Below are positions 2,302-34,127 of a stretch of 42,906 nucleotides of DNA, one piece after another (position 1 is the stretch's first letter; the number at the start of each line of letters is the position of its first letter). The stretch is from a virus. The stretch lies in the IMG/VR virus record IMGVR_UViG_3300045988_069513, positions 1 to 42,906 of that record. One strand, given 5' to 3'. Both the position numbers and the translations under genes were made by a program. A model generated the notes under the pieces. That model did no database searches. It was given only the letters and a program-made list of their open reading frames with translations, and was not told where the DNA came from.

Positions 2302-3879
2302 ATGGGATATGTAATTGGTTCCACGAAGGGCCAGGCCATCGCCAACCTTTTGAAGGAGGACGAGACGTACAAGGCGTCTGACGGCTCCACCTGGAAAAAG
2401 AACGCAGACGGCACCGTGACCGTCACCGACAAGGCCGGCGGCGTCACGCAGAACGCACTCCCCGCGGACAGCTTCAAGGGCAGCGCCACCGGCGTTGTGG
2501 CGAACAATGCGACACAGCAGGCCCAGGTGGATATGCTGAACAAAAACTCTCTGCAATGGTGGACGGCGGATGACGCCGGGAAGCAGGCCCTGTCCGCAGC
2601 CAACCAAGCTCTTGGAGCGGCCCTGGGCGGCTCTGTGGCATATGATCCTACCACCGGCACCTGGTCTGGCGTAGCGGGTACGACGCCTGCCACGCAGAGC
2701 GCTGACGTGCTGAGCAACATCGGCAGCTTTTCCTACGACGTGGCACAGCCTACGTATGAAAGCCAGTACAGTGACAGGATCGACGCCATGCTGAATGAAA
2801 TCCTGAACCGGGAGAAGTTCAGCTATGACGTTGAGGCGGATCCCCTGTACCAGCAGTACAAGACACAGTACCTGCGGGAGGGCGACCGCTCCATGCGGGA
2901 CACGCTGGCGGCGGCTGCGTCCGGTGCCGGCGGCATGAACAGCTACGCGGTGACTGCGGCACAGCAGGCCAACGACTACTACGCGGCGCAGCTGGGGGAC
3001 AAGATCCCGGAGCTGTACCAGCTTGCCTACGAGATGTACCTGACGGACATTGACAACCAGGTGAGAGACTTGGGTCTGCTGCAGGATATGGACAACACCC
3101 AGTACGGACGCTATCGGGACACCATGAGCGACTGGCGCAATGACCGGGACTTCGCCTACGGGCAGTACCGGGATAACGCAGCCGACCTCAAGTGGGGCGC
3201 AGAATTTGACGAGTCTATCCGGCAATGGCAGACCGACTACGAGCGGAACGCACTGGAAAGTGACCGGAACTACAACCGCGACGTGTACGAGAGCGACCGG
3301 AAATATAACCGGGGTGTGTACGAGTGGGACACCAGCTTTGACTACGGCAAAGACCGCGACGCAGTCAAAGATCAGAACGACGCGTGGGACAAGGCTCTTA
3401 CCATCCTCCAGAACGGCGGATACCCCAGCGACGAGCTGCTGGAAGCTGCCGGCATGAGCGCAGCGGAGGCTAACTCCATCCGGGAAGCGCAGACTATTGT
3501 CTTTACCGGAGGCGGTGGTTCAGATGGTACTGGTGGTTCCGGTGGATCTGGCGGCGGCGATGAACCGGATGACACCCCCGTGTTCAACAACGATAACGGC
3601 AGTGGTTTCACAGAAAAGCATGCAGCCGCAGTCAAGGCAGCGCCTGACCGCACCTCCGCCGACGTGTCTGATCTCAGCAGCAAGGGTAAGAGCGCCTTGC
3701 AGAGCCTGAGTATGATGTACGACTCCATCAGTAATCAGTACCCTGCAAAAGACGGTATGTATCCCGTGGAAAAGACCATCCTTGCGATGGCTGCAGAGGG
3801 CAGCATCACGGCGGACGATGGGTACATTCTGATGCAGCATTTTGGCTACGACGGAGAGAAACACTTCCCTGAAGGGTAA
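2302..3879 (+). CDS. Hypothetical virion protein (525 aa) with a Tyr/Arg/Asp-rich repeat region and a Gly/Ser linker
   Basis: AAGGAG at about 2289 with ATG at 2302. Contains repeated R-N/D-Y-N-R-D/G-V-Y-E motifs (SDRNYNRDVYESDRKYNRGVYEWD) and the linker GGGGSDGTGGSGGSGGG. Confidence 0.7.
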   Translation: MGYVIGSTKGQAIANLLKEDETYKASDGSTWKKNADGTVTVTDKAGGVTQNALPADSFKGSATGVVANNATQQAQVDMLNKNSLQWWTADDAGKQALSAANQALGAALGGSVAYDPTTGTWSGVAGTTPATQSADVLSNIGSFSYDVAQPTYESQYSDRIDAMLNEILNREKFSYDVEADPLYQQYKTQYLREGDRSMRDTLAAAASGAGGMNSYAVTAAQQANDYYAAQLGDKIPELYQLAYEMYLTDIDNQVRDLGLLQDMDNTQYGRYRDTMSDWRNDRDFAYGQYRDNAADLKWGAEFDESIRQWQTDYERNALESDRNYNRDVYESDRKYNRGVYEWDTSFDYGKDRDAVKDQNDAWDKALTILQNGGYPSDELLEAAGMSAAEANSIREAQTIVFTGGGGSDGTGGSGGSGGGDEPDDTPVFNNDNGSGFTEKHAAAVKAAPDRTSADVSDLSSKGKSALQSLSMMYDSISNQYPAKDGMYPVEKTILAMAAEGSITADDGYILMQHFGYDGEKHFPEG

Positions 3880-3896: not shown

Positions 3897-6800
3897 ATGG
3901 CACGTAAAATGAGCCAAAGCTCCAGAGACAAACTGAACGCCTACTATGACGAAATAGGGGTAAAAAGAAACGACAGAGAGGACGAGGGGAAACCCTCGCC
4001 CTCCTCCGCCGCTTCCAATCCTTCCACCGCTACCAATTCCAGCAGCGGCGCAACGACTTCAAAGCGGAAAATGAGCCAAGAGTCAAGAGATAAGCTCAAC
4101 GCCTATTATTCGCGCGTTGGAGCGGCGGCGCCGACATACACGCCGACAAAGGAAGATGACAAAGCACAGACTTCGTCCTCTGCGGCGGACACCAACAAGA
4201 CGAACCCTTTTTCTGAGGTTTGGAGGGGGTTTACGGATTTTTGGTGGTATGGTCGCGGTGATGCGTATGATGCGGTTACTAAGGCCAACCAGATCTACGA
4301 CACCAAGTTTGAGGAAGATAAGAAGGCTGTTGAGGAGTACAAGCAAAAGGAGCTCGACAAGTGGCTTGTGACCGAAACTGAGGCAGATGCGAGAGTATCT
4401 ACCGAAAAGACGAAACTTTCCACAAAGGCCGCAGATATTGCCGCGCTGGAAACAACCCTTTCTACGATGGCGGCAGAGTTTGAACAAACCCGCGACCCTG
4501 CCAAGTATTCCGCATACGAGGTAAAATACAACGAGTACGAGAAAGCGATTGCCGACTATGAAAAGTCTGTTGCAGCGTACACCGAATTGTGGAACAATGT
4601 CGCGCAGGAGAAAATTGCTGGTCGCAAAACGGACGATAGCGGATGGGAAACCGCAGGAAAGACTTTATGGGCCGGTGTTACTGGCCTTTCGGATGCTGTT
4701 GGCAAAACGCTCGATTATGTTTTCCCGACGGAGTTTTTGGGGAAATATGACCCGTTCACATGGATGAGCGACCAAGCAAGGCGGGAGAATTACGACGCGC
4801 AGATGGCACTTTCGGAGTCATTGGAAGGTCGCGGCTGGGTAGCAAAGACGGCGTCCGAACTTGGCATAGGCCTCATTCAGATGCTTCCTGACGTTGCGGC
4901 GACCGTGGCTTCCGGTGGCACAAACGCCACCACTTATGTGGATGATTTGTACCGCGCGGGATCATCTGCCGTTGCAGCCGCCAACAAGGCTGATAACCTC
5001 TGGGACTCCTTCAAAACAGCAAACGCGAAAATGTTTAGCAATCCCGGTTTCTATGTTGCCGCAGCGAGGACACTTGGCACCGACTACGAAACTGCAAAGG
5101 AAGCCGGAGCAACTGACGCACAGGCAACGGCCTATGCGCTGATTACCACCTACCTGAACGCCGGTATTGAGATTAGCGGTGGTATTCAGGCCTTGCCGGA
5201 TGCCCTTCAAACAGGAGACAAGAGCGCTATTCTTGACTGGATCCTTAGCGCACACGAGGAAGGCCTGGAAGAAGTTGTGCAGCGCTTTGTATCGGGATCT
5301 ATGGAAAAAGCTGTCTATGATCCCGACAAGGAGTGGTTTTCTACAACAAACGAGGACGCTATCATCCACCCGGAAACGATGGCAAAGGACTACGGCATGG
5401 GTACCGCTATTGGCGGCATTGCCGGTGGCGGGCAGACGGTAGCAATTAGCGTTCTGAACAGGATCGCACAGGCGAAAACACCCGACGTTCAGGCGCAGGT
5501 GATTGATGCTGTGCGGCACGATCCTGAAACTGTGAACGCCTTGGTGCAGGAGGCCAAAACCGCAGGCGAGACCGAGATCACGGAGCAGGTGGAGCAGAAA
5601 ATTGCCTCTGGCGAAGAAGTCACCCGACAGGAAGTTGTGCAGTTGGTCGCTGCCAGCGGCGCACAGGTGCAGGAAGAAACCACCGAGGCGGCAACGGAAC
5701 CCGAGGCGCAGACCGTCCCGCAGCAGGAAGAACCGGCAACGGAAGTAAAGAGAAGTGAATCGCTTGCTGAGGAAATGACGCTGGAGGGAGCGGTGGAAAA
5801 CGGCACCGTCACCGAAGCTGCGGTAGATACCGAAGGCGCAACCCGCAACGGCGTGGCCGTCCTGACCAACTACGCCAAGCAGGCGCACATGGGCGAAAAC
5901 GGCCTGAAAGCAATCGCTGATTTTTACGATGCCAACGAGAACCCGGAAACGGCACCGTTCTATGGCACCTTCGCAGCATATTGGAACGCCGGTTACAACG
6001 GAAAAGCGTTTGAGGAAGTCCGCGCCACCAACCGCGGTAACGTGTCCGATGTGGTTATGCGGGCCGCCTACAACGCCGGGCAGATGGACGCGATCCAGGG
6101 AAGTGGCAAAAAGGCCGTTGACAAAACAGCAGGCCAGACCGATAATATTTCCGGAAAAACCCAGAAAACTGCGAAGCCGAAAACTGTTCGAACCCAAAAG
6201 AGCGATTGGTCTGCGCACGATGTAACGTGGACGCTTCCTGCCGGCAGCCCCAACAAGGCTACTGTCGTTGCATACAGCACGAAGGCAACCAGCGACACAA
6301 TCGATGTTATGGCGGACGAGAATCCGACGGCCACCATCAGTCAGCTCCGCGACCTTATTCTCTATGATCAGGACGCGAAGAAGGTGCTGCAGCAGTACAT
6401 CGATGCGGGGTACGGAGATCAGGTGGCGAGCGAGTGGTTCAGCTATGACCGCAAGCGCGGCATTGGAAAGCCTGTCACAAAGTGGGTGTCGGGGGTAATA
6501 AACACTGAAGCGGACAATAAGGAGGCAACCGAACATGGCAAAGAGACCTTGGGAGAAGTTTCTGACGAAGGACGAGTACTGGAGCCTGACACGCGAGGGG
6601 CGGATGCAGGCGGACTACTGGACGGAGTGGCTTCCCAAAATGTGCAAGAGAATGCAGAAGGCCGGGACGCTGTATCCGACGCTGAAAGAGGAAGGGGAAC
6701 GCCTGTCGGAGCTGTTGTGGGAACTGATGCAGGTGCACAAGTACCCCGAGGACGGAGCGATGGAATTCATCAAGGAAGAAGTGTACGCACTTCCTCCGGA

Positions 6801-9800
6801 GTAAGCGAACAGGAGGTAAACGACGATGGCGATGTCGAAGGAAACTATCGAAAAGACCAAGCAAGCACTGCTGGCAGCGAAAGAACGGTGGGAGAAGATG
6901 CCACCGGAGGAGAAGAAGCGCCTGCAGGAAGAATACGAGAAAAATCCGGAGGAACGGATCCTGATACCGGACTGAGCGACGAAGATCCGCATCCGTGGGC
7001 AACGAAAAACGCCGTTGAGCCCGAACCCGGAAGCATTTCTGCAGAAGCAAAGCACGAAGCCGAAAGTTACGACGTTAAGTGTGTTGTCGTTTCGGACGAC
7101 GCGTGGGATGCAAATCATCCCTCTGCGCAGGCTTTTTCGCGGAATGGTGTGGTCTATGCCCGTGAACACATTGACGAAGTTTTCCGCGGCGTGGTGGCCC
7201 CGCATGAATTGACCCACGTTATGAAACAGCTTGGGTATAAGCCGTATCTGGATTTTCTTGATCGGACGAGCGATATGCTCAATTATGAAATCGAAGATGC
7301 ACAAGCACTGATGCAACACGTGGCGGAGCACGCACGCATTGACCTTTTTGGCATGGACGAGTCCGCCTCCCAAAAATTGTACGACGAGCTTAATGCCTCT
7401 GTTTACGGGCATATTGTTCGGGGAGATGTTGAGGGTAAATCCAGGTTTGGTCACGTAGATTTCCGCGATGCCTTCAACGACTTCGACGCTTATGCAACCG
7501 AACTGGCAGAAATTCACCGGCAGTTTAAAAACCGAAACCATCCCGGCGCGTCCGACACAGTTGCCCAGGAGCAGATCGAGCAGATATCCGACCTTGCAAA
7601 TCAGGAGGAGCCGAAAGGCACGAACTTTGTAATTGGCGCGAATGGTGCGAAGATGCCCACGACCCCGAAGGCGCGATACAAAGCCAACGCCGACGCTATC
7701 AAGACCCTGCGCGCCATTATGGCGGAAAACCGCATGGCAACCCCGCAGGAGCAGGAGACCCTTTCCAAATACACCGGCTGGGGCGGCCTGTCTGACGTTT
7801 TCAACGAGAAAAACGAGAGCTGGGCGAAAGAGTACAAGCAGCTTAAAAAGTTGCTGGATGACGGCGAGTATAAGACGGCAAAGGGATCTATCCTTGATGC
7901 GTACTACACTGACCCGTCGGTCATTCGCGGTATGTATAACGGCCTTGCGTCGCTTGGCTTCACCGGCGGCCGTATGCTGGAGCCTTCCTCCGGTGTTGGT
8001 CGTTTCATTGGCGCAATGCCGCAGGAAATGCTTGGCGGCGTGAAATCTTGGACGGCTGTTGAACTGGACAAGATCACCGGCAATATCGCAAAGTACCTTT
8101 ACCCCAACGCCGACGTGCGCGTGCAGGGCTATGAGACGGCAAAAATCCCTGACGGGTATATGGACGTTGTTATCGGGAACGTCCCCTTTGGTAATATTCC
8201 CATCGCGGACAAGGCTTATCCCGCAAGCGTTACGAAATCTATCCACAACTACTTTATCGCTAAGAGCCTTGATAAGCTGCGTCCCGGCGGCATTGCCGCC
8301 ATCATCACCAGCAGCGGCACACTGGACGCTATGGGCACTGAGGCGAGAAGCTATTTTATGAAGCAGGCGGACTTGATCGGCGCTATCCGTCTGCCGAACA
8401 CCGCATTTGAGGGCACCGGAACCAACGTTGTTTCTGACATTTTGGTGTTCAAGAAGCGGGAACCCGGCACGGCCTACAAAGGCGAAGCGTTTATTGAGGT
8501 TGGCAGAAAGCCTTGGACGGGCGAAAACCAATGGGGCGGTTACGAAATCAACGAGTATTTCCTAAAGCACCCTGAAATGGTGTTGGGTACGGCAGCTTAC
8601 GGAAAGGGACAGTACGGGCGCAATGTTGTGACCTACAATCCCCTTGACAGCAGACTTAGCCTGCAGAAGCAGATCGAGAAGGCTTTCGGCAAAATCAAGG
8701 CTAAGATGGACTACCCCGTGCAGCGCACGCAGGAGGAGATCAGAGCCGAGATCCGAGAAGCCTCCGGGAAGGTGAAGCAGGGAGGCCTTGTAAGCAAGGG
8801 CGGCAAGCTGTACCGCAATAACGGCGGTGTTCTTGAACACGCTGCGGAGATCAGCGAAAAGGACGCTGCTGCAGTTACTTCCATTCTTGAAATACGCGAT
8901 GCGGCACGAAACCTACTGAACCTCCAGATTGACGACGGCGGGGAAGCTGCCATCACGGCGGCACGGAGCAATCTTAACAAGCTCTATGACGCTTTTGTGA
9001 AAAAGTACGGCAGCCTGAACCTTCCGAAAAACAAGAAACTGGTGCAGAATGACGTGGACAGTCCCTTCATTCTGGCGCTGGAGGACTACAACAACGAGAC
9101 CCGCGTTGCAAAAAAAGCGGCCATCTTCAGCAAGAACACCATCACCGCGACGAAGGTTGTCACCCATGCGGACACCGTGGAGGAAGCGTTGACCGTTTCC
9201 CTGAACGAGACCGGCACCGTGGACATTCAGCGCATCGCCCAACTGACAGGCCAGCAGGCGGCAGCGGTAGAGCGGGAAATGCTGGAACGCGGTTTGGCGT
9301 TTAAGAACAGGAACGGCAACTTGGAAACCGCTGAAACCTATCTGTCCGGCAACGTCCGCGCGAAACTGCGCGACGCGGAAGCCCTGGCAGAGGGCGATGC
9401 GGACTACAACCGCAACGTGGAAGCCTTGAAAAAGGTAATTCCTGCCGACATTCCTGCCGAGGAGATCAAGGTGCGCCCTGGTGCAACGTGGATCCCCGAC
9501 AGCATCTATTCCGCCTTTGCTGGTGAAATGCTTGGCGGTGCCGGCATGACTTGGCGTAGCGGTCAGCGCGTTCCCGCTGTGGAGGTTGTCTATAACCGCG
9601 CCGTGGGCAAATTCTTCATCGAGGTCAACGATCCGTGGCTGAAAAGCCGCCCCGAGAATACCTCTACGTGGGGCACTTCTGACCGGCCTTTCGTCGGCGG
9701 TCAGAACAGCATCCTTGAAGCTGCACTGAATAATAAGATGGTTAGCGTGTATCGCACCGTCGGAGATAGCCGCGTGCTGGATAAGCAGGCCACGGCAGCA

Positions 9801-12800
9801 GCGCAGGAGAAATTGGAGAAGGTGCTGGCAGAATTCCAGAGCTGGATTTGGAAAGACGAGGCCCGGCGCACGGAATTGGGTGGTCTGTATAACGAGGTTT
9901 TCAACAACACCGTTACGCCGAAGTATGACGGCACGCACCTGACTGTGATCGGCAGCAATCCCGAGAAGCCTATGCGTCCTCACCAGAAGAACGCAGTGCA
10001 GAGAGTTATCAACAGCGGCGGCAACACCCTGCTTGCACACCGCGTTGGCGCAGGTAAGACCTACGAAATGGCGGCGGCAGCCATGAAACTGCGGCAGCTT
10101 GGTATTATCAAGAAGCCTCTGTTTGTGGTGCCGAAGCACCTTGTTGCACAGTGGGACAGCGAGTTCCGCGACTTCTTCCCTGCGGCGAAGATCCTTCCGC
10201 TTGAACACAAGGACTTCACGCCTGCCAACCGCAAACTGTTTGCAAACCGCATTGCCACCGGCGACTATGACGCGGTGATTATGAGCTATGAGCAGTTCGG
10301 CATGGTGCCTATGAGTCAGGAGCACCAGGAGGCGTTCTATCAGGAACAGATCGACGCGCTGGAAATGGCAATCCTTGAAAGCAAGCGTGCCAGCGGCAAG
10401 CGCGACCCGTCCGTGCGGGACATGGAGCGCAGCAAAAAGACCTTTGAAACGAAGCTCAAAAAGCTGGGTGACGGCAAAAAAGACGTTGACAACATCAACT
10501 TTGAGCAGTTGGGCATTGACGCACTGTTTGTGGACGAAGCTCACAACTTCAAAAATCTGTTCTACAATACGAAGATGCAGGGTGTGGCCGACCTTGGCGA
10601 TAAGGACGGCAGTATGCGGGCCTTCGACCTGTATATGAAGGTGCGCTACCTGCAGCGGCTCAACGGCGGGCGTGGCATCGTCTTTGCCACGGCAACACCG
10701 GTTATGAACAGCGTTGTTGAGCTTTACACCATGCAGCGGTATTTGCAAGGCGATCTTCTGGACGCGAAGGGCTTGACCAACTTCGACGCATGGGCGAACC
10801 AGTTTGGCGACGTTGTGACTATCCGCAAGATGAAAACCGGCGGCAACGGGTACGAGCTGAAACAGAGTCTTTCCAAGTACAAGAACCTTAGCGAAATGCA
10901 GCAGATGTTCCGCAGCTTTGCAGACGTTATCACCGACGCAGCAGACCTGCCCTATCTGAAAATCCCGAAGATGAAGGGCGGCAAGCGCATTGTTGTGGAA
11001 TGTGAGCCGAGTGCGTTCCAGGAGCAGTTCATGGAAGAGCTTGGCCAGCGTGCCGAGGCTTTGCGCGGTGCAGGCAAGGGCGGCAGCGAAGATCATATTT
11101 TTAAGGTTTTCGACGACGGTAAGAAGATCAGTTTTACACAGCGCATGATTGACAGCGACCTTCCTTATGAGGACGGCGGCAAGATTATGAAGTGCGCGGA
11201 GAACGTGCTGGAAATCTGGAAGCGCACCAAGGCCAACAAGGGCACGCAGCTTATCTTCTGCGACCGAGGAACCCCAGGCGGCGCAGAAGCGCAACGCGGC
11301 GTTTCTCTGTATGAGGACGTTAAGAACCTGCTCGTGGCGGGTGGGGTGCCCGCAAATCAGGTAGCTTTTATCCACGACGCAGACACCGAAGAGGCAAAGT
11401 CCAAACTGTTCAAGGATGTCAAGGCTGGCAACGTCCGCGTGTTGATCGGCTCCACGGCGAAGATGGGCACCGGCATGAATGTGCAGGATCGCATTGTAGC
11501 TATGCATGAGCTGAACGCTCCCGACCGTCCCGGCGATCTGGAACAGAACGAAGGGCGTGCCTTGCGGCAAGGCAATATGAACGAAGAGGTTGAGGTTTAC
11601 GCCTACGTAACCAAAAAGACCTTTGACAGCCGCCAGTGGGACAACCTGAAACGAAAGGCGACCTTCATTCATCAGATCATGGCCGGCGAGTACAACGGGC
11701 GCGAGGCGGACGGCGACGGCGACCTTGCATTGTCCGCGGCGGAAATTTCCGCGATTGCCTCCGACAACCCGCTTATCATGGAGCAGTTCGAAGTTTCCGA
11801 AAAGATTTCCAATCTGGAAAACCTGGAACGAGCGCATACGAAGGAAGTAGCCGAGGCCAAGCGGCGTATTGCAACCGCCGAAAAAGAGATCGAGAGCGAC
11901 ACGGAGTATCTGGAACGCTACAAGAAAGACCGTGAGAGCCGGCAGGAGACCGCAGGAGACAAGTTCCGTGCTTCCATAGGCGGTAAGACCTTTGCAGAAA
12001 GAAAAGCCGCAGGTGAGGCGCTGATTGCGGCTGCGAAGAGGACGCTTAACCTGAGCGCAGAGGCCGAGACCTACACTGAGGTTGGTAGCTTTGCCGGTTT
12101 CAAGCTGTTCGTTACCAGCAAGGGCGATATGATCCTGCGCGGCAAGGCGCAGTATCGCGGTACGGTCAATATGCAGAGCGCGGTTGGCACGATCCAGGCT
12201 CTGGAAGCAATCCCCAAGAGGATCGACGCCATTATTTCTGCTACCGAGACCCGACTGGCGGAGAATAAGGCGGCAATCACCAAGCTGCGGAAAACCGCTG
12301 CCTCCTCTTTCGACAAGGCGGAGGAGCTGATTGCAGCACGCGTGCGCGAGGCAGAGATCATGGCAGAACTGAACCCCCCGAGCGAGCAGCAGATGGCGGC
12401 GCTTGATGACGGCGACGATGTGGATAACGATGTTTCTTCTGTTGCCGATGCCGAACGGTGGACAGCAAAGCGAGTGGGCGGTAGCGAGAAAGCCCCCAAA
12501 TCGCTGAGCGAGATTGTAGAACAAATCCGGCAGGACTTTGGCGTTCACATCACCACCGGACACGTTCGCGGCAAGGGCACACGAGGACAGTACAACCACC
12601 AGAACCAGGGGATCAGAACCAAGGTCGCAAACAACCTCCCCACGATTGCGCATGAGTTGGGGCACCACCTGACGCAGAAGTACAACCTGCTTTCCGGCCT
12701 AGAGGCTTCCGTCAAGACAGAGTTGGAGGACGCGCTGGGTGAAGGCAAAGAGAACTACCCGGAGAAGAAGTGGCATAGTGAAGGCTTCGCTGAATATCTG

Positions 12801-15800
12801 CGCAAGTTCTTGCAGAACCGGGAGACGGCGGCCATTGACTATCCCGAAGTAACCAAATTGTTCTTGAACGCGCTCTCCGGCAAAGACCGCGCCCAGCTCG
12901 AAGAGTTGGCCGACGAGGTGAACGCCTATTACTCTCTGGACGCGGACACCGCAACTAGCGCTATCAGGCTCCGCGAGGAAGGCGCACCGGATGCACGAAC
13001 CGTTAGCCAGAAGATCCGGGCCAAGATGAGCGCTCTGTATCAGGCGTGGGTGGACAGCAACGAAGGCATAAAGCAATTCGACCGGGCAACCGGGGCAAAC
13101 ACCTACAAGATTGCCTCCAATGCTGCCTATGCAGATGCGATTGCCGGGCAGATCATCACCGGGGACCTGACTGGCACGAATGGACAGTACGTTGGCCCCG
13201 GTCTGAAAACCGCATTGTATGGCCTGGACATGAACAACAAGCAGGAGTACCGGCTGTTTGGCGAATACCTGACCGTGAAGCACGGCCCGGAACGCCTTGC
13301 AGAGGGTATGCGGATCTTCGCGGATGACAGAAAGAACAGTACGGGATGGATGCAGCGCAGGCAGGCAGAGTTGGAAGCCCAATATCCGCAGTTTGCGGAA
13401 ATCTCTGACCGGCTGTATGAGTTCATCACGGCTTTCCACGAGGCATGGGGCGTGGAAACTGGCCTGATCGGAGAGGATACGTTTGAGGAGTGGAAGGTGC
13501 GCTGGCAGCATTACGTTCCCCTAAACCGCGCCGTCGGCGTTGGCAACCGGGGCATTGGTGCGAAGCGCGGCTTTGCGAACCAAACCAGCACCATCAACAA
13601 GGCTCGCGGCAGTGGTTTGGACATTGTGCATCCCGTGGACAACCTGATTAACAACATCGTTAAAATGGTTAGTGCAGGCGTGCGGAACAATGTTATGGCT
13701 ACGATCACCGAGCAGGCGACGCAACTTGGCGCTAACGCAATGTTCCTTGAAAAGGTTCCTATGCCCTTGAAGGTGACGAAGGTGGATATGACTGGAGTAA
13801 AAGACCAGCTCACCGAGATGCTGGAAGGTAGTGACCTGGACGCAAAGAGCAAAGCGAAAGCCGGCGAAGTTGTCAGCAATCTGGACGACATTCTGTTCCA
13901 GTACGGCAGAGGCAAAGCATACGGAGACGTTGTTACCGTTCTAAAGGACGGCAAGCCTGAGTTCTGGAAAATCAACGATCCCCAGCTCCTCAGCTCCATC
14001 ACAAACATGGCACCTAAAACGATGGACGGTATTCTGGACGCTTACGCAGTTGTCAGCCGGTTCATGACTTCGAACATCACCGGGAACAATGTGATCTGGT
14101 CTCTGTTCTCCAACTTCCCCCGCGATATGATGACGTTCTTTACCTACTCCAAGGATAAGAACCCTAAGCGGATGATTAAGGGCGTGAGCGATGCGTTTAT
14201 CAACCGCGCTAAAGGAGACAAGGCTGATCCTCTCTACAAGGAGTTCCTTGCGATGGGCGGCGGCAAGACCAGCGCATACACCGCGGACAGAGATCTTGCC
14301 AAGAGGGCAAGGGAGAAACTTTCTGGCAAGAAAATCAACGCCAACCCCCTTGACTGGATCGCATATGTCAGCGATACGATCGAGAACGGCCCGCGATACG
14401 CTACCTACAAGCTCATGCGTGACCACGGCATGAACCCGCAGGAGGCTTTCTACGAGGCTATGGACATCACGGTTAACTTCCGGCGCGGCGGTAGAATTGC
14501 CCGGGAGTTGAACAAGGTGGTTCCGTTCTTCAATGCGAATGTTCAGGGCCTCGACAAATTCCGGCGCTGGATTACAGCAGAGGGAGTGCCTGCGGAGCAT
14601 CGCAAAAAGGTCATTAAAACCAGAACGACGTACTACGTTGCGGCAAGCGCCGCGCTGGCTGCGATGATCTACGCGCTGAACATGGGCAGCGGTGAAAGAG
14701 AGAAGGAGTATGAGCAGCTCTCCACATATACCAAGAACAGCTTTTGGTGCATCCCGCTTGGCGACGGCAAGTTTTTTGCCATCCCCAAGCCCCGAGAGAT
14801 CGGCGTGCTGAGTTCGTTCTTTGAGTCAACGCTGGAATATGTGATCGGAGAGAACGACCATGCGTTTGACGACTTCTACTCCTACGCAATGGAAAACTGC
14901 CTTCCCTCCATTGCAAACGACATTGCCCAGATCCCCAACAAGGGCCTTGTCGAAACCGGAATGAACATCATAGGCAGTTTTGGCGTTATCGGCGTAATTG
15001 GTTATCTGGGCGCAAACCGCGACTTCCTTGGGCGGCCCATCGTCTCTAGCGGCTTGCAGAACCTTGAACCCAAGGATCAGTACACCGAGCGCACAAGCAA
15101 GATTGCCTATTGGCTTGGGCAGGCGTATGGCGGCAGCCCTCAGCAGATCGACTACTTTTTCCAGCAGGTGCTTGGCGGTTGGTGGAAAGCCCAAAAAGCG
15201 CTGTTCCCCGTTGGCCAAGAAAACGTGGACTATACGCTTGGCGTGCAGAACACCTACGTGAAGGACAACCAGTATTCCACCGACCTTACCAACTGGCTGT
15301 ATGACCGGAAAGACGCAACCAGCAGGGCAAATGCAAGCGACCCGGCCAACATGGAGAAGGCCATCTCTGCGAAGTGGGATAGCAACATGACCGATTTCTA
15401 CGGCTCCTACTACAAGCTGGCGAAGAACAAGGCAGAGACCGTTGCTACACGGTCTACCCGGCAGCTTGTATTGGAGATGATCTTGGAATATCAGAAGGCA
15501 ATCGACACAAACGCCAAAACGGAGACGCAGCGAGCTGTTGAGGAAGTCTGCACGAGCAAGAGCAGCACCGAGTTCCTTCCTTCTGTTATGCCTGTAGAAG
15601 TGACAGACGGTAAGGGCGTGAAGCACGTATTGTCTGATATTCAGTATGTTGAATTCCAAACGGACTATAACCGCCTGTACTGGGAGATCGTAGAGGAGAC
15701 TCTATCCGGCAATGTGAATGAGCGAGCAGAAATTTTGAAGGCCGCTAAACGTGTCGCAAAAGAGGAGGCTGTGGAACGTGTTCTTGCGCGCATCGGGGCG

Positions 15801-16244
15801 CCGAAGTCTGCCTACACAACTACGTATGGCAACGTGTCCGCCGACAACGTGACGGAGTTCTTGGCAAGTGTTTCCGCGGCGGACGATGATGGCAGCGTTA
15901 AACAGGCTGAGGTGATTGACATTATCACGGGAATGGGCCTTAGTGACTCTGATGCATGGACGCTGTATTTCAGCAAGTACGACGGCAAAGCCGCAACTGC
16001 TGCGGAGGAGCACGGCATTCCTGCTGAGTTGTTTATGAACACGAAGCTGGAGCTGGACAACATCAAGCCGGACTACCGCAGCGACGGAACAGTTATCCGC
16101 GACAGCCGGCGCAGGAAGGTGGAATCCTATCTCGCAACTGTCTGCAGCGACTACAAGGAGTACCTGTTCTTCCTCGGGATGGAGTTCAGCTCTGTCAAGG
16201 ACGACGCGGACTACATCGCGTATTTCGGCAGGGAAGATGATTAA
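3897..16244 (+). CDS. Giant polyvalent protein (4115 aa): zincin + N6-adenine methyltransferase + SNF2 helicase + second zincin + C-terminal hydrophobic region (DarB-like core)
   Basis: Uninterrupted ORF with AAAGGAGG 8 nt upstream of ATG 3897. Motifs read directly: HELTH, EPSSGVGRF...GNVPFG, GAGKT, DEAH, ATATPVMNS, QNEGRALRQGN, HELGHH. See the finding on the cryptic internal boundary at 6491-6975. Confidence 0.8.
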   Translation: MARKMSQSSRDKLNAYYDEIGVKRNDREDEGKPSPSSAASNPSTATNSSSGATTSKRKMSQESRDKLNAYYSRVGAAAPTYTPTKEDDKAQTSSSAADTNKTNPFSEVWRGFTDFWWYGRGDAYDAVTKANQIYDTKFEEDKKAVEEYKQKELDKWLVTETEADARVSTEKTKLSTKAADIAALETTLSTMAAEFEQTRDPAKYSAYEVKYNEYEKAIADYEKSVAAYTELWNNVAQEKIAGRKTDDSGWETAGKTLWAGVTGLSDAVGKTLDYVFPTEFLGKYDPFTWMSDQARRENYDAQMALSESLEGRGWVAKTASELGIGLIQMLPDVAATVASGGTNATTYVDDLYRAGSSAVAAANKADNLWDSFKTANAKMFSNPGFYVAAARTLGTDYETAKEAGATDAQATAYALITTYLNAGIEISGGIQALPDALQTGDKSAILDWILSAHEEGLEEVVQRFVSGSMEKAVYDPDKEWFSTTNEDAIIHPETMAKDYGMGTAIGGIAGGGQTVAISVLNRIAQAKTPDVQAQVIDAVRHDPETVNALVQEAKTAGETEITEQVEQKIASGEEVTRQEVVQLVAASGAQVQEETTEAATEPEAQTVPQQEEPATEVKRSESLAEEMTLEGAVENGTVTEAAVDTEGATRNGVAVLTNYAKQAHMGENGLKAIADFYDANENPETAPFYGTFAAYWNAGYNGKAFEEVRATNRGNVSDVVMRAAYNAGQMDAIQGSGKKAVDKTAGQTDNISGKTQKTAKPKTVRTQKSDWSAHDVTWTLPAGSPNKATVVAYSTKATSDTIDVMADENPTATISQLRDLILYDQDAKKVLQQYIDAGYGDQVASEWFSYDRKRGIGKPVTKWVSGVINTEADNKEATEHGKETLGEVSDEGRVLEPDTRGADAGGLLDGVASQNVQENAEGRDAVSDAERGRGTPVGAVVGTDAGAQVPRGRSDGIHQGRSVRTSSGVSEQEVNDDGDVEGNYRKDQASTAGSERTVGEDATGGEEAPAGRIREKSGGTDPDTGLSDEDPHPWATKNAVEPEPGSISAEAKHEAESYDVKCVVVSDDAWDANHPSAQAFSRNGVVYAREHIDEVFRGVVAPHELTHVMKQLGYKPYLDFLDRTSDMLNYEIEDAQALMQHVAEHARIDLFGMDESASQKLYDELNASVYGHIVRGDVEGKSRFGHVDFRDAFNDFDAYATELAEIHRQFKNRNHPGASDTVAQEQIEQISDLANQEEPKGTNFVIGANGAKMPTTPKARYKANADAIKTLRAIMAENRMATPQEQETLSKYTGWGGLSDVFNEKNESWAKEYKQLKKLLDDGEYKTAKGSILDAYYTDPSVIRGMYNGLASLGFTGGRMLEPSSGVGRFIGAMPQEMLGGVKSWTAVELDKITGNIAKYLYPNADVRVQGYETAKIPDGYMDVVIGNVPFGNIPIADKAYPASVTKSIHNYFIAKSLDKLRPGGIAAIITSSGTLDAMGTEARSYFMKQADLIGAIRLPNTAFEGTGTNVVSDILVFKKREPGTAYKGEAFIEVGRKPWTGENQWGGYEINEYFLKHPEMVLGTAAYGKGQYGRNVVTYNPLDSRLSLQKQIEKAFGKIKAKMDYPVQRTQEEIRAEIREASGKVKQGGLVSKGGKLYRNNGGVLEHAAEISEKDAAAVTSILEIRDAARNLLNLQIDDGGEAAITAARSNLNKLYDAFVKKYGSLNLPKNKKLVQNDVDSPFILALEDYNNETRVAKKAAIFSKNTITATKVVTHADTVEEALTVSLNETGTVDIQRIAQLTGQQAAAVEREMLERGLAFKNRNGNLETAETYLSGNVRAKLRDAEALAEGDADYNRNVEALKKVIPADIPAEEIKVRPGATWIPDSIYSAFAGEMLGGAGMTWRSGQRVPAVEVVYNRAVGKFFIEVNDPWLKSRPENTSTWGTSDRPFVGGQNSILEAALNNKMVSVYRTVGDSRVLDKQATAAAQEKLEKVLAEFQSWIWKDEARRTELGGLYNEVFNNTVTPKYDGTHLTVIGSNPEKPMRPHQKNAVQRVINSGGNTLLAHRVGAGKTYEMAAAAMKLRQLGIIKKPLFVVPKHLVAQWDSEFRDFFPAAKILPLEHKDFTPANRKLFANRIATGDYDAVIMSYEQFGMVPMSQEHQEAFYQEQIDALEMAILESKRASGKRDPSVRDMERSKKTFETKLKKLGDGKKDVDNINFEQLGIDALFVDEAHNFKNLFYNTKMQGVADLGDKDGSMRAFDLYMKVRYLQRLNGGRGIVFATATPVMNSVVELYTMQRYLQGDLLDAKGLTNFDAWANQFGDVVTIRKMKTGGNGYELKQSLSKYKNLSEMQQMFRSFADVITDAADLPYLKIPKMKGGKRIVVECEPSAFQEQFMEELGQRAEALRGAGKGGSEDHIFKVFDDGKKISFTQRMIDSDLPYEDGGKIMKCAENVLEIWKRTKANKGTQLIFCDRGTPGGAEAQRGVSLYEDVKNLLVAGGVPANQVAFIHDADTEEAKSKLFKDVKAGNVRVLIGSTAKMGTGMNVQDRIVAMHELNAPDRPGDLEQNEGRALRQGNMNEEVEVYAYVTKKTFDSRQWDNLKRKATFIHQIMAGEYNGREADGDGDLALSAAEISAIASDNPLIMEQFEVSEKISNLENLERAHTKEVAEAKRRIATAEKEIESDTEYLERYKKDRESRQETAGDKFRASIGGKTFAERKAAGEALIAAAKRTLNLSAEAETYTEVGSFAGFKLFVTSKGDMILRGKAQYRGTVNMQSAVGTIQALEAIPKRIDAIISATETRLAENKAAITKLRKTAASSFDKAEELIAARVREAEIMAELNPPSEQQMAALDDGDDVDNDVSSVADAERWTAKRVGGSEKAPKSLSEIVEQIRQDFGVHITTGHVRGKGTRGQYNHQNQGIRTKVANNLPTIAHELGHHLTQKYNLLSGLEASVKTELEDALGEGKENYPEKKWHSEGFAEYLRKFLQNRETAAIDYPEVTKLFLNALSGKDRAQLEELADEVNAYYSLDADTATSAIRLREEGAPDARTVSQKIRAKMSALYQAWVDSNEGIKQFDRATGANTYKIASNAAYADAIAGQIITGDLTGTNGQYVGPGLKTALYGLDMNNKQEYRLFGEYLTVKHGPERLAEGMRIFADDRKNSTGWMQRRQAELEAQYPQFAEISDRLYEFITAFHEAWGVETGLIGEDTFEEWKVRWQHYVPLNRAVGVGNRGIGAKRGFANQTSTINKARGSGLDIVHPVDNLINNIVKMVSAGVRNNVMATITEQATQLGANAMFLEKVPMPLKVTKVDMTGVKDQLTEMLEGSDLDAKSKAKAGEVVSNLDDILFQYGRGKAYGDVVTVLKDGKPEFWKINDPQLLSSITNMAPKTMDGILDAYAVVSRFMTSNITGNNVIWSLFSNFPRDMMTFFTYSKDKNPKRMIKGVSDAFINRAKGDKADPLYKEFLAMGGGKTSAYTADRDLAKRAREKLSGKKINANPLDWIAYVSDTIENGPRYATYKLMRDHGMNPQEAFYEAMDITVNFRRGGRIARELNKVVPFFNANVQGLDKFRRWITAEGVPAEHRKKVIKTRTTYYVAASAALAAMIYALNMGSGEREKEYEQLSTYTKNSFWCIPLGDGKFFAIPKPREIGVLSSFFESTLEYVIGENDHAFDDFYSYAMENCLPSIANDIAQIPNKGLVETGMNIIGSFGVIGVIGYLGANRDFLGRPIVSSGLQNLEPKDQYTERTSKIAYWLGQAYGGSPQQIDYFFQQVLGGWWKAQKALFPVGQENVDYTLGVQNTYVKDNQYSTDLTNWLYDRKDATSRANASDPANMEKAISAKWDSNMTDFYGSYYKLAKNKAETVATRSTRQLVLEMILEYQKAIDTNAKTETQRAVEEVCTSKSSTEFLPSVMPVEVTDGKGVKHVLSDIQYVEFQTDYNRLYWEIVEETLSGNVNERAEILKAAKRVAKEEAVERVLARIGAPKSAYTTTYGNVSADNVTEFLASVSAADDDGSVKQAEVIDIITGMGLSDSDAWTLYFSKYDGKAATAAEEHGIPAELFMNTKLELDNIKPDYRSDGTVIRDSRRRKVESYLATVCSDYKEYLFFLGMEFSSVKDDADYIAYFGREDD
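6535..6804 (+). CDS. Nested +1-frame ORF (89 aa) inside the giant ORF; possibly TnpV-like (recollection only)
   Basis: AAGGAGG at 6519-6525 lies 9 nt before ATG 6535. Third codon positions are mostly G/C and the translation is globular-looking (MAKRPWEKFLTKDEYWSLTREG...). The giant frame over the same bases reads as G/R/D/E/A low complexity. Confidence 0.55.
   Translation: MAKRPWEKFLTKDEYWSLTREGRMQADYWTEWLPKMCKRMQKAGTLYPTLKEEGERLSELLWELMQVHKYPEDGAMEFIKEEVYALPPE
6826..6975 (+). CDS. Second nested +1-frame ORF (49 aa), coiled-coil-like
   Basis: AGGAGG at 6811-6816 lies 9 nt before ATG 6826. Translation MAMSKETIEKTKQALLAAKERWEKMPPEEKKRLQEEYEKNPEERILIPD. The TGA at 6973-6975 forms CTGA with giant-frame codon CTG 6972-6974. 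Confidence 0.45.
   Translation: MAMSKETIEKTKQALLAAKERWEKMPPEEKKRLQEEYEKNPEERILIPD
7203..7217 (+). other. HExxH zincin metallopeptidase motif 1 (HELTH) within the giant ORF
   Basis: Translation VVAPHELTHVMKQLGY in the giant frame. Confidence 0.6.
7758..8460 (+). other. Gamma-class N6-adenine DNA methyltransferase domain (approximate bounds)
   Basis: SAM-binding motif I LEPSSGVGRF at 7977-8006, and a catalytic motif IV variant NVPF (GNVPFG) at 8178-8189 about 60 aa downstream. This is the order typical of gamma-class amino-MTases. Confidence 0.75.
9975..11650 (+). other. SNF2-family helicase/ATPase domain (approximate bounds)
   Basis: Motif I GAGKT at 10047-10061, Ia PLFVVPKHLVAQW, II DEAH at 10533-10544, III ATATPVMNSVVELY, VI QNEGRALRQGN at 11544-11573. 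Confidence 0.85.
12651..12668 (+). other. HExxH zincin motif 2 (HELGHH) within the giant ORF
   Basis: Translation PTIAHELGHHLTQKYN in the giant frame. Confidence 0.55.
14628..15015 (+). other. Two hydrophobic, TM-like segments near the C-terminus of the giant protein
   Basis: YYVAASAALAAMIYAL and IIGSFGVIGVIGYLGA are uncharged hydrophobic runs of 16-17 residues. Confidence 0.45.
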
Positions 16245-16249
16245 AAACG

Positions 16250-16290
16250 AGAGGAGGCTCCCGTGTGGGGCCTCCTCTTTGTTTTTATTT
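16250..16290 (+). terminator. Rho-independent terminator ending the late operon
   Basis: GAGGAGGC(t)CCC - gtgt - GGGGCCTCCTC hairpin (16251-16277) followed by TTTGTTTTTATTTT, 6 nt after the giant ORF stop. Confidence 0.85.
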
Positions 16291-16312
16291 TGCGTGGTTT
16301 TTCGTCTTGTGG

Positions 16313-16341
16313 TTGACATTTATTTCCCGGAATGTTAGAAT
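16313..16341 (+). promoter_or_regulatory. Near-consensus sigma-A/70 promoter reading towards the candidate attP and the integrase 3' end
   Basis: TTGACA (16313-16318), a 17-nt spacer, then TAGAAT (16336-16341). No plus-strand ORF lies downstream. Confidence 0.6.
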
Positions 16342-16375
16342 GTCGGCGCACGCGAGACGTGAGCTGTGGGACTTT

Positions 16376-16425
16376 CCATGTACTAACTGAGTTTGTCCCG
16401 AAGGCTATGCTTAGTTAGGACATGG
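16376..16425. other. Candidate attP: 50-bp imperfect palindrome next to the serine integrase gene
   Basis: CCATGTACTAACTGAG (16376-16391) and CTTAGTTAGGACATGG (16410-16425) are inverted repeats matching 14/16, separated by 18 bp. The site lies 7 bp from the int stop. Size and symmetry fit large-serine-recombinase att sites. Confidence 0.45.
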
Positions 16426-16431
16426 TATGGG

Positions 16432-17859
16432 CTAAAAAAATTTAATGGACTTTATTCGCTTGACGTCGCTTGTCCATTCAACCTCTATGCTCTCAATGAT
16501 GGATCGCCAGAAGGAACGCTTGTGCTCATCGTCAAGGGCCTTGTAGATCTTCTTCCATCCGCCCGAAAGGACTTCCCTGATGTGTGTGTAGTCTCGCACC
16601 TCGTCGTGCTCGCTGCCCACCAGCGCGTCATGCAGCTGCTTGTTCAGCTCCTCAAAGTCTTTTTCGTATTGCTCTATGGTGCGGATCTTCCCGGTTCGCC
16701 ATGAATAGTTCAAACGGTCAATCTGTTCGTTGATTTTATCAACGTCCGGCTTGGCCTTTTTTGCGTTTTTGGCGGCTACTTTCACGCTTTGCACTTCTGC
16801 GTCCTTCAGCAGATCCTCGATGTTGGAGAGCAGCATTCTTTCGAAGGTGTTCTCAAAGATCGATTTTCCGAAGGAGCATCTGCCGGCGGAAAAATGCTTG
16901 TTCTGGCAGCGGTACTGCTTGTAAACGTAATGGCCTCCGCCCTTTCTCGTTCCGGTATAGACACCGCCTTTGAGAAGCCTTCCGCATTCCGGGCACCGGA
17001 TAAGCCCGCTGAACCAATACGCGCGGTTTTCCGTGGTGTTCTGCCGGACGTTACGGCGGGTGACGTTCTGCATCTTGTCCCATTCTTCCTTGGTCATGTA
17101 CCCCTCGCAGAAATTGGAGTTTCCCCGGTAGCTTCCGTAGAGGATCGGCTTCTTCAGGTACTTGGAGAGGTTGCTGTAGTGCATGTCAATGCCGTAGGTC
17201 TCTTTGAGATGCCACATTGTGGACTTTATGCTTTGGTGCAGCATCACATGGCGGAGCATATCCTCGACAATATGCTGGGTTTTCGGGTCCTTCATTACGC
17301 GGCGCTTTCCGGTCTCCTTGTCCAGGGCATAGGTAAAACCGAAGGTGCAGTTACCGGACAGCCATTGGCCGTTGGCGATCTTGTAATCGTTGACCATGCG
17401 CACGCGCTCGCTGCCGGTGTCCGCCTCCATTTCCGCAATGGTGATCTTCATGTTCACCAGCATGCGGCCCTGGGCGGTTGTGAGATCGTAGTCCTCCTCG
17501 GTGGCTACCCATTCCACCGGCTCGATCCGGCGCATGCACTCGTGGTATTCCCGGACGGAGCGGAAAAATCTGTCCAGCTTGACGAAGATGATCTGCTCGA
17601 ATTTGCCCTTCTCTGCGTCCTGGATCATCCGCTGGAGTTCAGGGCGCTTTGCGATTGGCTTTCTGCCGGACACGCCCTCGTCCACATACCATTCAACGAT
17701 TTTCATGTTGTGTTCTTGCGCGTATTTCTCCAGGTGCATTCTCTGAGAGTCCAGGGATATGCCCCGGAGCTTCTGCTCATCCGTTGACACGCGGATGTAT
17801 GCTGCCACAAGAAGGATTCTTGCAACGCTTGAGACTGTTGCAAAGGATGTTTCTTCCAT
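16432..17859 (-). CDS. int: Large serine recombinase (integrase), 475 aa
   Basis: N-terminal resolvase-type catalytic motif AAYIRVSTDEQ...GISLDSQ, a recombinase domain, the zinc-ribbon motif CPECGRLL...YRCQ, and a C-terminal coiled coil. Confidence 0.9.
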   Translation of the reverse strand: MEETSFATVSSVARILLVAAYIRVSTDEQKLRGISLDSQRMHLEKYAQEHNMKIVEWYVDEGVSGRKPIAKRPELQRMIQDAEKGKFEQIIFVKLDRFFRSVREYHECMRRIEPVEWVATEEDYDLTTAQGRMLVNMKITIAEMEADTGSERVRMVNDYKIANGQWLSGNCTFGFTYALDKETGKRRVMKDPKTQHIVEDMLRHVMLHQSIKSTMWHLKETYGIDMHYSNLSKYLKKPILYGSYRGNSNFCEGYMTKEEWDKMQNVTRRNVRQNTTENRAYWFSGLIRCPECGRLLKGGVYTGTRKGGGHYVYKQYRCQNKHFSAGRCSFGKSIFENTFERMLLSNIEDLLKDAEVQSVKVAAKNAKKAKPDVDKINEQIDRLNYSWRTGKIRTIEQYEKDFEELNKQLHDALVGSEHDEVRDYTHIREVLSGGWKKIYKALDDEHKRSFWRSIIESIEVEWTSDVKRIKSIKFF

Positions 17860-17943
17860 GATGTATCACTTCTTTCGCTAGTTTTATTGTGGTGTCCAAT
17901 TTTTCGGACTGGTGATGTTGATAATGATATTCGAACGGTTGTT

Positions 17944-18432
17944 CTATTTCTTGCGCTTGAACAGGGAGGCGATCAACTTAAATAGAGGAATTACCAGTAG
18001 GGCTATTATAGAATAAAGTGCAACGCCACAGCCTACGCCATAGACGAGAAGTACAACAAATAAAACCCAACCAATGATGTATTTAACAATTACCCACACG
18101 CGTTTCTCGCTTCCCGTAGGCTTTTCTTCTGCTAGCGCCGCTTCTATCCTATCGTAGTAGGCGTTGAGCTTATCCTTTGACTCTTGGCTCATTTCCCGCT
18201 TTGACGTTGTGCTGCTTTCACCGGTTTTGCCATCGAAGTCATACGGGCAGACGCCGCCGGGGTGCTGGTGTTCCGGATAACCGTGATGGTAGTGGTATTC
18301 CCCCGTTGAATGGTTTGTGTGGCCCCCTTTGCTATCTGTGCGGCCCGGATGGGCTAGGGCAACAACCGCGAGAAGAGCGGACAACACAACGGCGATGATC
18401 CTCTTTCTCATTTTTGGTGCAGCGTTCTCCAC
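17944..18432 (-). CDS. YHYH-domain protein with N-terminal signal peptide and C-terminal membrane anchor (162 aa)
   Basis: RKRIIAVVLSALLAVVALA leader, GRTDSKGGHTNHSTGEYHYHHGYPEHQH (YHYH motif) and a C-terminal hydrophobic stretch of about 45 aa. Carries the SKREMSQESKDKLNAYY motif shared with the giant protein. Confidence 0.75.
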   Translation of the reverse strand: MENAAPKMRKRIIAVVLSALLAVVALAHPGRTDSKGGHTNHSTGEYHYHHGYPEHQHPGGVCPYDFDGKTGESSTTSKREMSQESKDKLNAYYDRIEAALAEEKPTGSEKRVWVIVKYIIGWVLFVVLLVYGVGCGVALYSIIALLVIPLFKLIASLFKRKK

Positions 18433-18896
18433 GCTTTCAACTCGTCCTTGAGGAAGTTGATCTGCTCCTGGTACTCGTCCTTGATGGCGCGGATGTCTTT
18501 GCGGTGCTGCTCGTCGATCATCGCCAGGCGCAGCTTCATTTCCTCGTTTTCCTTTTCCACGGCGGATAGAGTAGCGGTCTGCCTCTCCAGCTGCTCCATC
18601 TGCCGAAGCTCCCTCTCAACCTGTTCGGTGCAGGAAAATTCATCTGTGGTGCCGCCGATCAGGGCGATGAGGATGTTTTTGATTGTTGAATACTTGCAGT
18701 CGATGTAGTCGCCGGCTTTAATGCGGTTGATTGTGCCGATGGGAACTTTGCTCTTGTCCGCAAGGGTCTGATTCGTCCATTCCAGATGCTTTTGCCGCTT
18801 GCCGCACCATTGCAGCAGATCCGGAAAGGAAAGGAGCATTAGGTTTGGGACACAGCTTTCTCCTATGCGGGTGCATTTAATGCATTTTTCAAACAT
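18408..18896 (-). CDS. HTH DNA-binding protein with C-terminal coiled coil (162 aa)
   Basis: XRE-like segment WTNQTLADKSKVPIGTINRIKAG followed by heptad-rich ERELRQMEQLERQ...EEMKLRL. Overlaps the downstream gene by 25 nt. Confidence 0.7.
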   Translation of the reverse strand: MFEKCIKCTRIGESCVPNLMLLSFPDLLQWCGKRQKHLEWTNQTLADKSKVPIGTINRIKAGDYIDCKYSTIKNILIALIGGTTDEFSCTEQVERELRQMEQLERQTATLSAVEKENEEMKLRLAMIDEQHRKDIRAIKDEYQEQINFLKDELKAWRTLHQK

Positions 18897-34089: not shown

Positions 34090-34127
34090 CTCACGGGAAC
34101 AGACCGCGAAGAAAGGAGCATGAAACC

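Follow-up and report, generated by a model that had tools for sequence, protein, structure and literature searches.

A short peptide motif shared by a giant polyvalent protein and a YHYH-domain membrane protein of a temperate phage, with signs of gene conversion between the two genes

Why would two genes that lie on opposite strands and some 14 kb apart in a phage genome share a patch of nearly identical DNA? This question is raised by the IMG/VR virus record IMGVR_UViG_3300045988_069513, which was analyzed over its full length of 42,906 bp (hereafter the window). The record is a complete temperate phage genome (42.8 kb; G + C content of 55.6%) with a direct terminal repeat of 119 nt. The shared patch encodes the peptide (T)TSKR(K/E)MSQES(R/K)DKLNAYY, which is found twice in the N-terminal leader of a giant protein and once before the membrane anchor of a protein with a YHYH domain (hereafter the YHYH protein). 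The reading that we favor, and that we hold at about even probability, is that the peptide is a selected helix module present in two genes, homogenized by gene conversion, and acting as a putative docking element for a common partner. The features on which this reading draws are the following.

3897–16244, plus strand: giant-protein gene (P0001; 4115 aa), encoding a large polyvalent protein with an Eco57I-like methylase, an SNF2/ResIII helicase, and LPD38
3897–4151, plus strand: N-terminal leader of the giant protein (85 residues), with predicted motif helix 1, a disordered linker, predicted motif helix 2, and a PTYTPTK tail
3903–3947, plus strand: motif copy 1, RKMSQSSRDKLNAYY, residues 3–17 of the giant protein
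4047–4127, plus strand: motif copy 2 with its homologous flanks, GATTSKRKMSQESRDKLNAYYSRVGAA; the core at 4059–4109 is the left arm of the inverted repeat
17944–18411, minus strand: gene for the YHYH-domain membrane protein (P0002; 155 aa from the ATG at 18411); the open reading frame is open from a GTG at 18432
18136–18216, minus strand: motif copy in the YHYH gene, TTSKREMSQESKDKLNAYYDRIEAA; the core at 18154–18204 is the right arm

Recomputing the alignment of positions 4059–4109 with the reverse complement of positions 18154–18204 returned the same 46 matches over 51 positions that the original prediction, made from the letters of the window alone, had counted. A repeat search delimited inverted arms at 4053–4127 and 18136–18210 (75 nt, 80% identity). 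In the self-comparison by blastn that had been proposed as a check, the arm pair matched over 65 nt at 86% identity with 76.1 bits, whereas across 40 codon-shuffled genomes the best non-local self-match had a mean score of 31.8 bits and reached a maximum of 37.4 bits. The second-best dispersed repeat of the real genome scored 39 bits. The arm pair is by far the strongest dispersed repeat of the genome and lies far beyond chance, and the genes that carry it had correctly been described as otherwise unrelated.

At the protein level, the two copies in the giant protein and the one in the YHYH protein are as first described, except that copy 2 spans residues 55–71 rather than 55–72. The extended module covers about 25 codons, (T)TSKRKMSQES(R/K)DKLNAYY(D/S)x(I/V), and copies 1 and 2 are 80% identical at the DNA level. 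The giant gene also holds a weak third match to NAYY:

12901–12934, plus strand: LADEVNAYYSLD, near residues 3003–3016 of the giant protein; 71% identity over 34 nt to copy 2

This third match, which follows the second HExxH motif of the giant protein (HELGHH), scores below the range of the shuffled genomes and is probably either due to chance or very old.

Is the peptide or the DNA conserved? The proportions of synonymous (pS) and nonsynonymous (pN) differences were compared over 15 codons, RKMSQxS(R/K)DKL(N/D)AY(Y/H). Pairs of copies yielded pS values of 0.65–1.25, which is near saturation, and pN values of 0.05–0.16. The sole pair with few synonymous changes comprised copy 2 and the YHYH copy of the window (pS of 0.38). 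Because pN is far below pS between copies, this codon comparison shows conservation of the peptide, not of the DNA, and hence purifying selection at the protein level in both genes.

Database searches, also proposed for the motif with the original prediction, recovered two phage relatives that carry it, in addition to a non-relative with NUMOD3 repeats that is considered below. The first relative, P0006, is a YHYH orthologue from a related temperate phage represented by short Logan contigs (L084, L085, and L090). Its lysogeny module is syntenic with that of the window, with an integrase that is 88% identical (partial, on L085), a P0004 homologue that is 78% identical, and a YHYH protein that is 60% identical. 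P0006 keeps the motif as TTSNRKMSQESKDKLDAYHKEIEAAL, and the remainder of its C-terminal half has diverged. The second relative, P0125 (357 aa, from an ENA contig of 2.5 kb), was recovered when 1.84 billion representative proteins were searched with a profile. It begins MARKMSQSSIDKLNAYYDTIG and also has TSKRKMSQSSRDKIDSYYSSIG, such that both leader copies are kept. The leader is 73% identical to that of the giant protein over 85 residues (P0125 residues 1–80), and the two proteins are unrelated afterwards; the body of P0125 that follows the leader is coiled-coil-like. Since P0125 carries the same leader on an unrelated body, the two-helix leader is, as judged from these alignments, a portable module. 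Likewise, since relatives of both genes carry the motif, the motif is by the same comparisons old in both gene families.

Elsewhere in public data the motif is extremely rare, and no Pfam family matches it. A six-frame regular-expression scan of 80 fetched IMG/VR loci with YHYH genes found no copy of the motif; the nearest string, KLNNYY in L050, belongs to a protein rich in Asn and Tyr and was judged to be due to chance. When P0002 was compared by tblastn to the same 80 loci, 35 matched, and these matches ended at residues 70–81, just before the motif. The motif in YHYH proteins is thus, on the extent of these matches, a lineage-specific module. Exact degenerate DNA patterns of the motif had no matches in the viral, genome, and metagenome contig collections. 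A looser DNA pattern had 1, 1, and 2 matches in the three collections, where about one chance match per collection is expected, and all were in unrelated proteins: a phage structural protein (in two collections, and almost certainly on one contig), a tetratricopeptide repeat (TPR) protein, and an ATP-citrate-lyase-like protein. Word-indexed homologue searches limited to the motif region of P0002 and to residues 1–120 of P0001 returned the query alone, and the leader is shared by no other giant protein in a set of 5.8 billion sequences. No match was obtained for the leader by tblastn against the phage collection, nor were related loci recovered with residues 102–501 of the giant protein or with P0125. 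A profile search of PDB sequences yielded chance matches only (Sonic hedgehog, E = 0.2, 13.7 bits). Within each of the other YHYH loci, comparison of the YHYH tail to the remaining genes of that locus gave only low-complexity matches. A search for the L084-type phage through its neighboring genes gave only contigs of 1–2 kb.

YHYH-domain proteins themselves are common in IMG/VR phage contigs, with 107 matched stretches encoding a relative of P0002. The tails of these relatives (L004–L083) are very variable, and some have KTSC, PG_binding, SH3, or topoisomerase-type zinc finger domains. A serine-recombinase homologue is located within 3 kb in only three of the 80 YHYH loci that were kept.

Phage genomes are mosaics, and a narrow distribution of this kind would be expected if a single past event of illegitimate recombination had copied the patch from one gene to the other, leaving a neutral remnant and a peptide with no role of its own. 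The confinement of the motif to a very narrow lineage, its lack of a family assignment, and phage mosaicism all fit such an origin. However, pN is far below pS between all copies, the motif has persisted in the YHYH orthologue and in the P0125 leader although synonymous change there is saturated, and it forms a conserved island within an otherwise fast-evolving linker. We therefore regard a neutral remnant as rather unlikely.

The low pS between copy 2 and the YHYH copy of the window raises a further question, namely whether the two loci have exchanged DNA. Sites were compared three ways among copy 2, the YHYH gene of the window, and L084. In the 5′ flank of copy 2 (4047–4079), six sites agree with L084 and two with the YHYH gene of the window, whereas in the core (4080–4112) nine sites agree with the YHYH gene of the window and one with L084 (Fisher p = 0.013 for this switch in affinity). 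On the 3′ side of the core, the two YHYH orthologues cluster with each other, and copy 2 has no relation to them. With copy 1 as the outgroup, the synonymous states TCA, GAT, AAG, and CTC are common only to copy 2 and the YHYH copy of the window, and at those four sites copy 1 and L084 have a common alternative state. Because copy 2 is a mosaic of an L084-type flank and a core of the type in the YHYH gene of the window, we infer that a short gene-conversion tract formed between the giant and YHYH loci once the L084 lineage had split off. Of the explanations first put forward, gene conversion or module exchange is supported both by this mosaic and by the relatives that carry the module in both gene families. 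Collectively, the feature is real and mildly unusual, and it is best filed as phage mosaicism combined with concerted evolution of a new short peptide motif in two unrelated genes. As such, the repeat is a clean, small example of peptide-motif concerted evolution between unrelated phage genes and is mainly a pointer for experiments.

What might the peptide do? AlphaFold2 modelled helices in the leader at residues 7–19 and 61–74, with predicted local distance difference test (pLDDT) scores below 50 at residues 25–57 and 81–105. In the YHYH protein, the motif was modelled as a helix at residues 83–102 (pLDDT of ~89) that follows a disordered segment at residues 65–77, and a second helix at residues 107–159 is on the anchor side of the motif helix. 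Each motif copy is thus modelled as a short helix. The original suggestion of a functional peptide holds insofar as the peptide is under selection (pN << pS), is kept in relatives, and is predicted to be helical; its version as a processing site misfits the Prp-type sites of the phage itself in register, as described below. In the giant protein, a Trp/Phe-rich helix, PFSEVWRGFTDFWWYG (residues 104–118), directly follows the leader and precedes a stretch of about 130 residues modelled confidently as long helices (4206–4640, residues 104–247; pLDDT of 80–96). In the model, residues 104–247 look like a membrane-interface segment and a coiled coil.

Two other roles were considered and set aside. 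A role in RNA structure or as an antisense element was rejected, as small hairpins seen by eye are not common to the copies, and pairing is impossible because both mRNAs carry the same sense sequence. Internal translation initiation at the motif Met was rejected because no adequate Shine-Dalgarno sequence is present.

The YHYH protein comprises, in order, a signal peptide, the YHYH domain, a disordered linker, the predicted motif helix, a hydrophobic anchor, and a KRKK tail. It matches NF033223 (YHYH_alt) at residues 25–49 (1.2e-12; 47.9 bits versus a cut-off of 30); P0005 is also 155 aa. YHYH domains, for which zinc binding is predicted, often occur as fusions to tail proteins (PMC7824862). 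The signal peptide, MRKRIIAVVLSALLAVVALA/HPG, is of the Sec type, and hydropathy indicates a C-terminal hydrophobic anchor; from these, the motif helix would face outward from the membrane. The gene is located between the integrase gene and a gene for a helix-turn-helix (HTH) protein with a weak resemblance to RstR, on the same strand as both.

The giant gene is the last gene of the late operon, which is on the plus strand and crosses the record ends, and a gene upstream of it matches the PHROG family "internal virion protein." The ATG of the giant gene (3897) is preceded by AAGGAGG, a strong Shine-Dalgarno sequence, and P0125 likewise begins MARKMSQ. The LPD38 match has an E-value of 2e-29 in Pfam. 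An LPD domain and several enzymatic domains in one polypeptide, in the context of virion genes, place the giant protein among the large polyvalent proteins of phages, for which P1 DarB is the prototype (Iyer et al., 2017, PMC5512222). It resembles these proteins in its LPD38, SNF2 helicase, and methylase domains, in its position at the end of the late operon, and in the adjoining internal-virion-protein homologue. It differs in its N-terminal leader, as no such leader is described in the part of that source consulted. Packaging of such polyvalent proteins and their ejection into the host have been predicted (PMC5512222).

From these observations, the following mechanism may be proposed. A module of about 25 codons would encode a short amphipathic alpha-helix in two otherwise unrelated genes, and gene conversion between the loci would have made copy 2 more similar in DNA to the YHYH copy (concerted evolution). 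The giant protein would be packaged, ejected, and carried across the envelope at infection. Only in the envelope at ejection would a single partner be within reach of both copies, because the ejected giant protein would cross it and the YHYH helix would be displayed on the outward side of the membrane. Both helices would dock one common partner, which is the weakest step of the proposal. The YHYH copy of a lysogen would then compete with the leader of the protein brought in by a virion, or bind to it. If the peptide is a docking element, it would provide a handle on how virions take up or release giant polyvalent proteins and on the role of YHYH membrane proteins in lysogeny modules.

The closest precedent for such an encounter is Ltp of phage TP-J34, a surface-tethered protein of the lysogeny module that blocks ejection by binding the ejected tape measure protein (PMC3952083). 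Like Ltp, the YHYH protein is encoded by a prophage lysogeny module, next to the integrase, and is predicted to be exported and membrane-tethered. Unlike Ltp, it has neither a lipobox nor the Ltp repeat domains, and its YHYH domain is predicted to bind zinc (PMC7824862). No Cys follows its signal peptide, and Pfam, PHROG, and NCBIfam models give only YHYH_alt. A peptide shared with a virion protein of the phage itself is not described for Ltp. By extension, the displayed YHYH docking helix might act as a decoy that blocks ejection by the same phage or its kin, with gene conversion maintaining the match between decoy and target. We consider such mimicry-based self-exclusion improbable; if true, a decoy held identical to its target by gene conversion would represent a new logic of superinfection exclusion.

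Several points weigh against the favored reading of a selected, gene-converted docking helix. The motif is seen in both the giant and YHYH genes of one genome in this genome only. The comparison comprises just four to six copies from three lineages, such that the selection and mosaic statistics draw on few sites, and the shared synonymous states could stem partly from codon bias, with the numbers being small. Packaging and ejection of the giant protein are argued from the late-operon end, the adjoining internal-virion-protein homologue, and the literature on polyvalent proteins (PMC5512222). The topology of the YHYH protein is not certain, as its hydrophobic tail spans about 47 residues. The shared docking helix, with its hypothetical partner and putative role, is a best guess.

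Could the leader instead direct the giant protein into the virion, or mark it for processing, with the YHYH copy being a functionless by-product of recombination? Two motif copies are located at the extreme N-terminus in a disordered leader, and P0125 has the same leader on a different body, which is what a portable signal would produce. The phage also encodes a Prp-like protease (33769–34089; GHAG...DIVCSAVS), and its adjoining scaffold and major capsid genes have L27-like sites near their starts: the scaffold starts MHKKTLLDINLKLF/DG (at 34086–34180), and the major capsid protein starts MRKLYNVNLQLF/AN (at 35164–35210). The segment KLNAYY/(S,D) of the motif loosely resembles these sites (...INLKLF/DG in the scaffold and ...VNLQLF/AN in the capsid), but the register does not fit, as LN-A-YY has N and L swapped relative to NL-(Q/K)-LF. 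A regular expression for an (I/V)NL(K/Q)LF-type site followed by D or A recovered, among real genes, the scaffold and capsid only and failed to match the motif. Moreover, the motif is modelled as a helix, not as an extended strand. Nor is the YHYH copy a neutral by-product, since the orthologue has kept it amid diverged surroundings. The scaffold protein also has QQKLNEWYAE (34770–34800, near residue 235), a weak echo of DKLNAYYDE that would favor targeting and could be relevant should the leader mimic a scaffold helix, although it may be due to chance. Among known systems, the capsid-targeting sequences of T4 internal proteins and the Prp-processed N-termini of Firmicute phage proteins are similar in being portable leaders on virion-carried proteins, and the latter phages share with this one a Prp-like protease and L27-like scaffold and capsid sites. 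The motif differs from both in its register mismatch, its two copies, and its presence in a membrane protein. On balance, a targeting or processing signal is unlikely.

The non-relative recovered among the 1.84 billion representative proteins bears on another possibility, that the motif is a divergent NUMOD3-type helix that binds the DNA minor groove and tethers the giant protein to DNA, with the YHYH copy being a captured piece. This sole non-relative, P0126, is a GIY-YIG protein with six NUMOD3 units, including RKMSQEARDKMS and RKLSQEARDKLSA. It matches Pfam NUMOD3 at 1e-12 and the motif profile at a summed E-value of 1.3e-10, although the latter treats six duplicated units as independent. 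The motif profile aligns to all six units at 7.5–17.8 bits each, but this same profile had selected P0126, and the best single unit (17.8 bits) is near the chance level for PDB (13.7 bits, Sonic hedgehog). NUMOD3 itself is a short helix of GIY-YIG and HNH homing endonucleases that binds the minor groove (PMC3664794). In favor of this possibility, a DNA methylase and a helicase are present in the giant protein. The motif resembles NUMOD3 (PF07460) in being a short helix with flexible linkers and in an apparent core pattern of S-x-E-(S/T/A)-(R/K)-x-K-(L/I/M), yet it ends in N-A-Y-Y rather than S-x-A-x-K-G, is not adjoined by a nuclease domain (Pfam finds none in P0001 or P0002), and has one copy in a linker that appears to be exported from the cytoplasm. 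The Pfam model misses the leader, the YHYH linker, and the L084 segment even at E-values up to 10, and a six-frame search of the whole genome with this model gave no candidate. Since the Pfam model fails to detect the motif, NUMOD3 is, at the level of these profile comparisons, its closest resemblance and not a family to which it belongs. A DNA-tethering helix is therefore a doubtful explanation, and we give it a low probability.

Does the inverted arrangement of the two arms have a function of its own? The following additional features are located between them.

16249–16279, plus strand: terminator-like hairpin, 3′ of the giant gene
16376–16425, no strand assigned: imperfect palindrome with arms of 16 nt and a center of 18 nt; candidate attP only
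16432–17859, minus strand: large serine recombinase (integrase; 475 aa) with Resolvase and Zn_ribbon_recom domains

The arms had been described as flanking the giant gene, terminator, candidate attP, and integrase. They do enclose the terminator, the palindrome, the integrase gene, and the rest of the giant gene, but the first 162 nt of the giant gene, with copy 1, are located outside of the enclosed segment. The arms might allow the 14-kb segment to invert, whether in a programmed way or through homologous recombination, with a swap of the N-termini of both genes. The arms are inverted and in the same frame, so that a crossover would give two open chimeras: one of 140 aa with the leader and the membrane anchor, and one of 4130 aa with the signal peptide, the YHYH domain, and the giant body. 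In addition, a serine recombinase gene is located between the arms, gene conversion implies that the two loci pair, and YHYH domains elsewhere are fused to tail or virion proteins (PMC7824862). However, the longest exact run is only 18 nt, and 90% identity extends over just 51 nt; the repeat lacks dyad symmetry (at most 50% over arms of 10–14 nt); and the sole recombinase, at 475 aa, is of the integrase type and has an attP-like site of its own, with no small invertase encoded. Inversion would also remove the giant gene from the late operon and place a Sec signal on a 4130-aa protein, which is implausible. Both relatives have the isomer of the window, and only one assembly of the window phage was found, on a single contig that carries these proteins. 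The invertible segments of Mu and P1 (Gin/gix and Cin/cix) are similar in having inverted repeats within coding sequence and an in-frame swap of ends. When the features of Gin, Hin, and Cin systems were looked for, both a small serine invertase adjoining the segment and dyad-symmetric inverted crossover sites were absent. The phage further differs from the Mu and P1 segments in that its arms are 90% identical and its 14-kb segment includes the integrase and the attP candidate. The anatomy of the locus thus lends no support to the earlier option of an inversion substrate, which we consider highly improbable. Because the late and lysogeny operons have opposite orientations, the inverted geometry would be incidental and not a switch. 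Taken as a whole, the original interpretation is supported in its gene conversion and its selected peptide, and is not supported in its inversion and its processing site.

Beyond the two motif-bearing genes, the lysogeny block on the minus strand comprises the large serine recombinase, the YHYH protein, an HTH/coiled-coil protein (18408–18896), and the RstR-like HTH gene. The resemblance of the HTH protein gene to RstR-type phage repressors is weak (E of 0.0014, far below the cut-off). Among the integrases of the phage collection, that of MT835521.1 (L091), a human fecal phage of 42.5 kb, is nearest to the integrase of the window, at 46% identity. This record has neither a giant gene nor the motif, and it gives a weaker translated match to the P0004 region (~33% over 82 residues). 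Elsewhere in the window, tandem coding repeats with NRNYNRDVYE-type units are located at 3263–3324, within a 531-aa protein encoded upstream of the giant gene, and a Gly/Tyr/Asp/Ser-rich repeat is located at 25231–25308 (25.2 kb).

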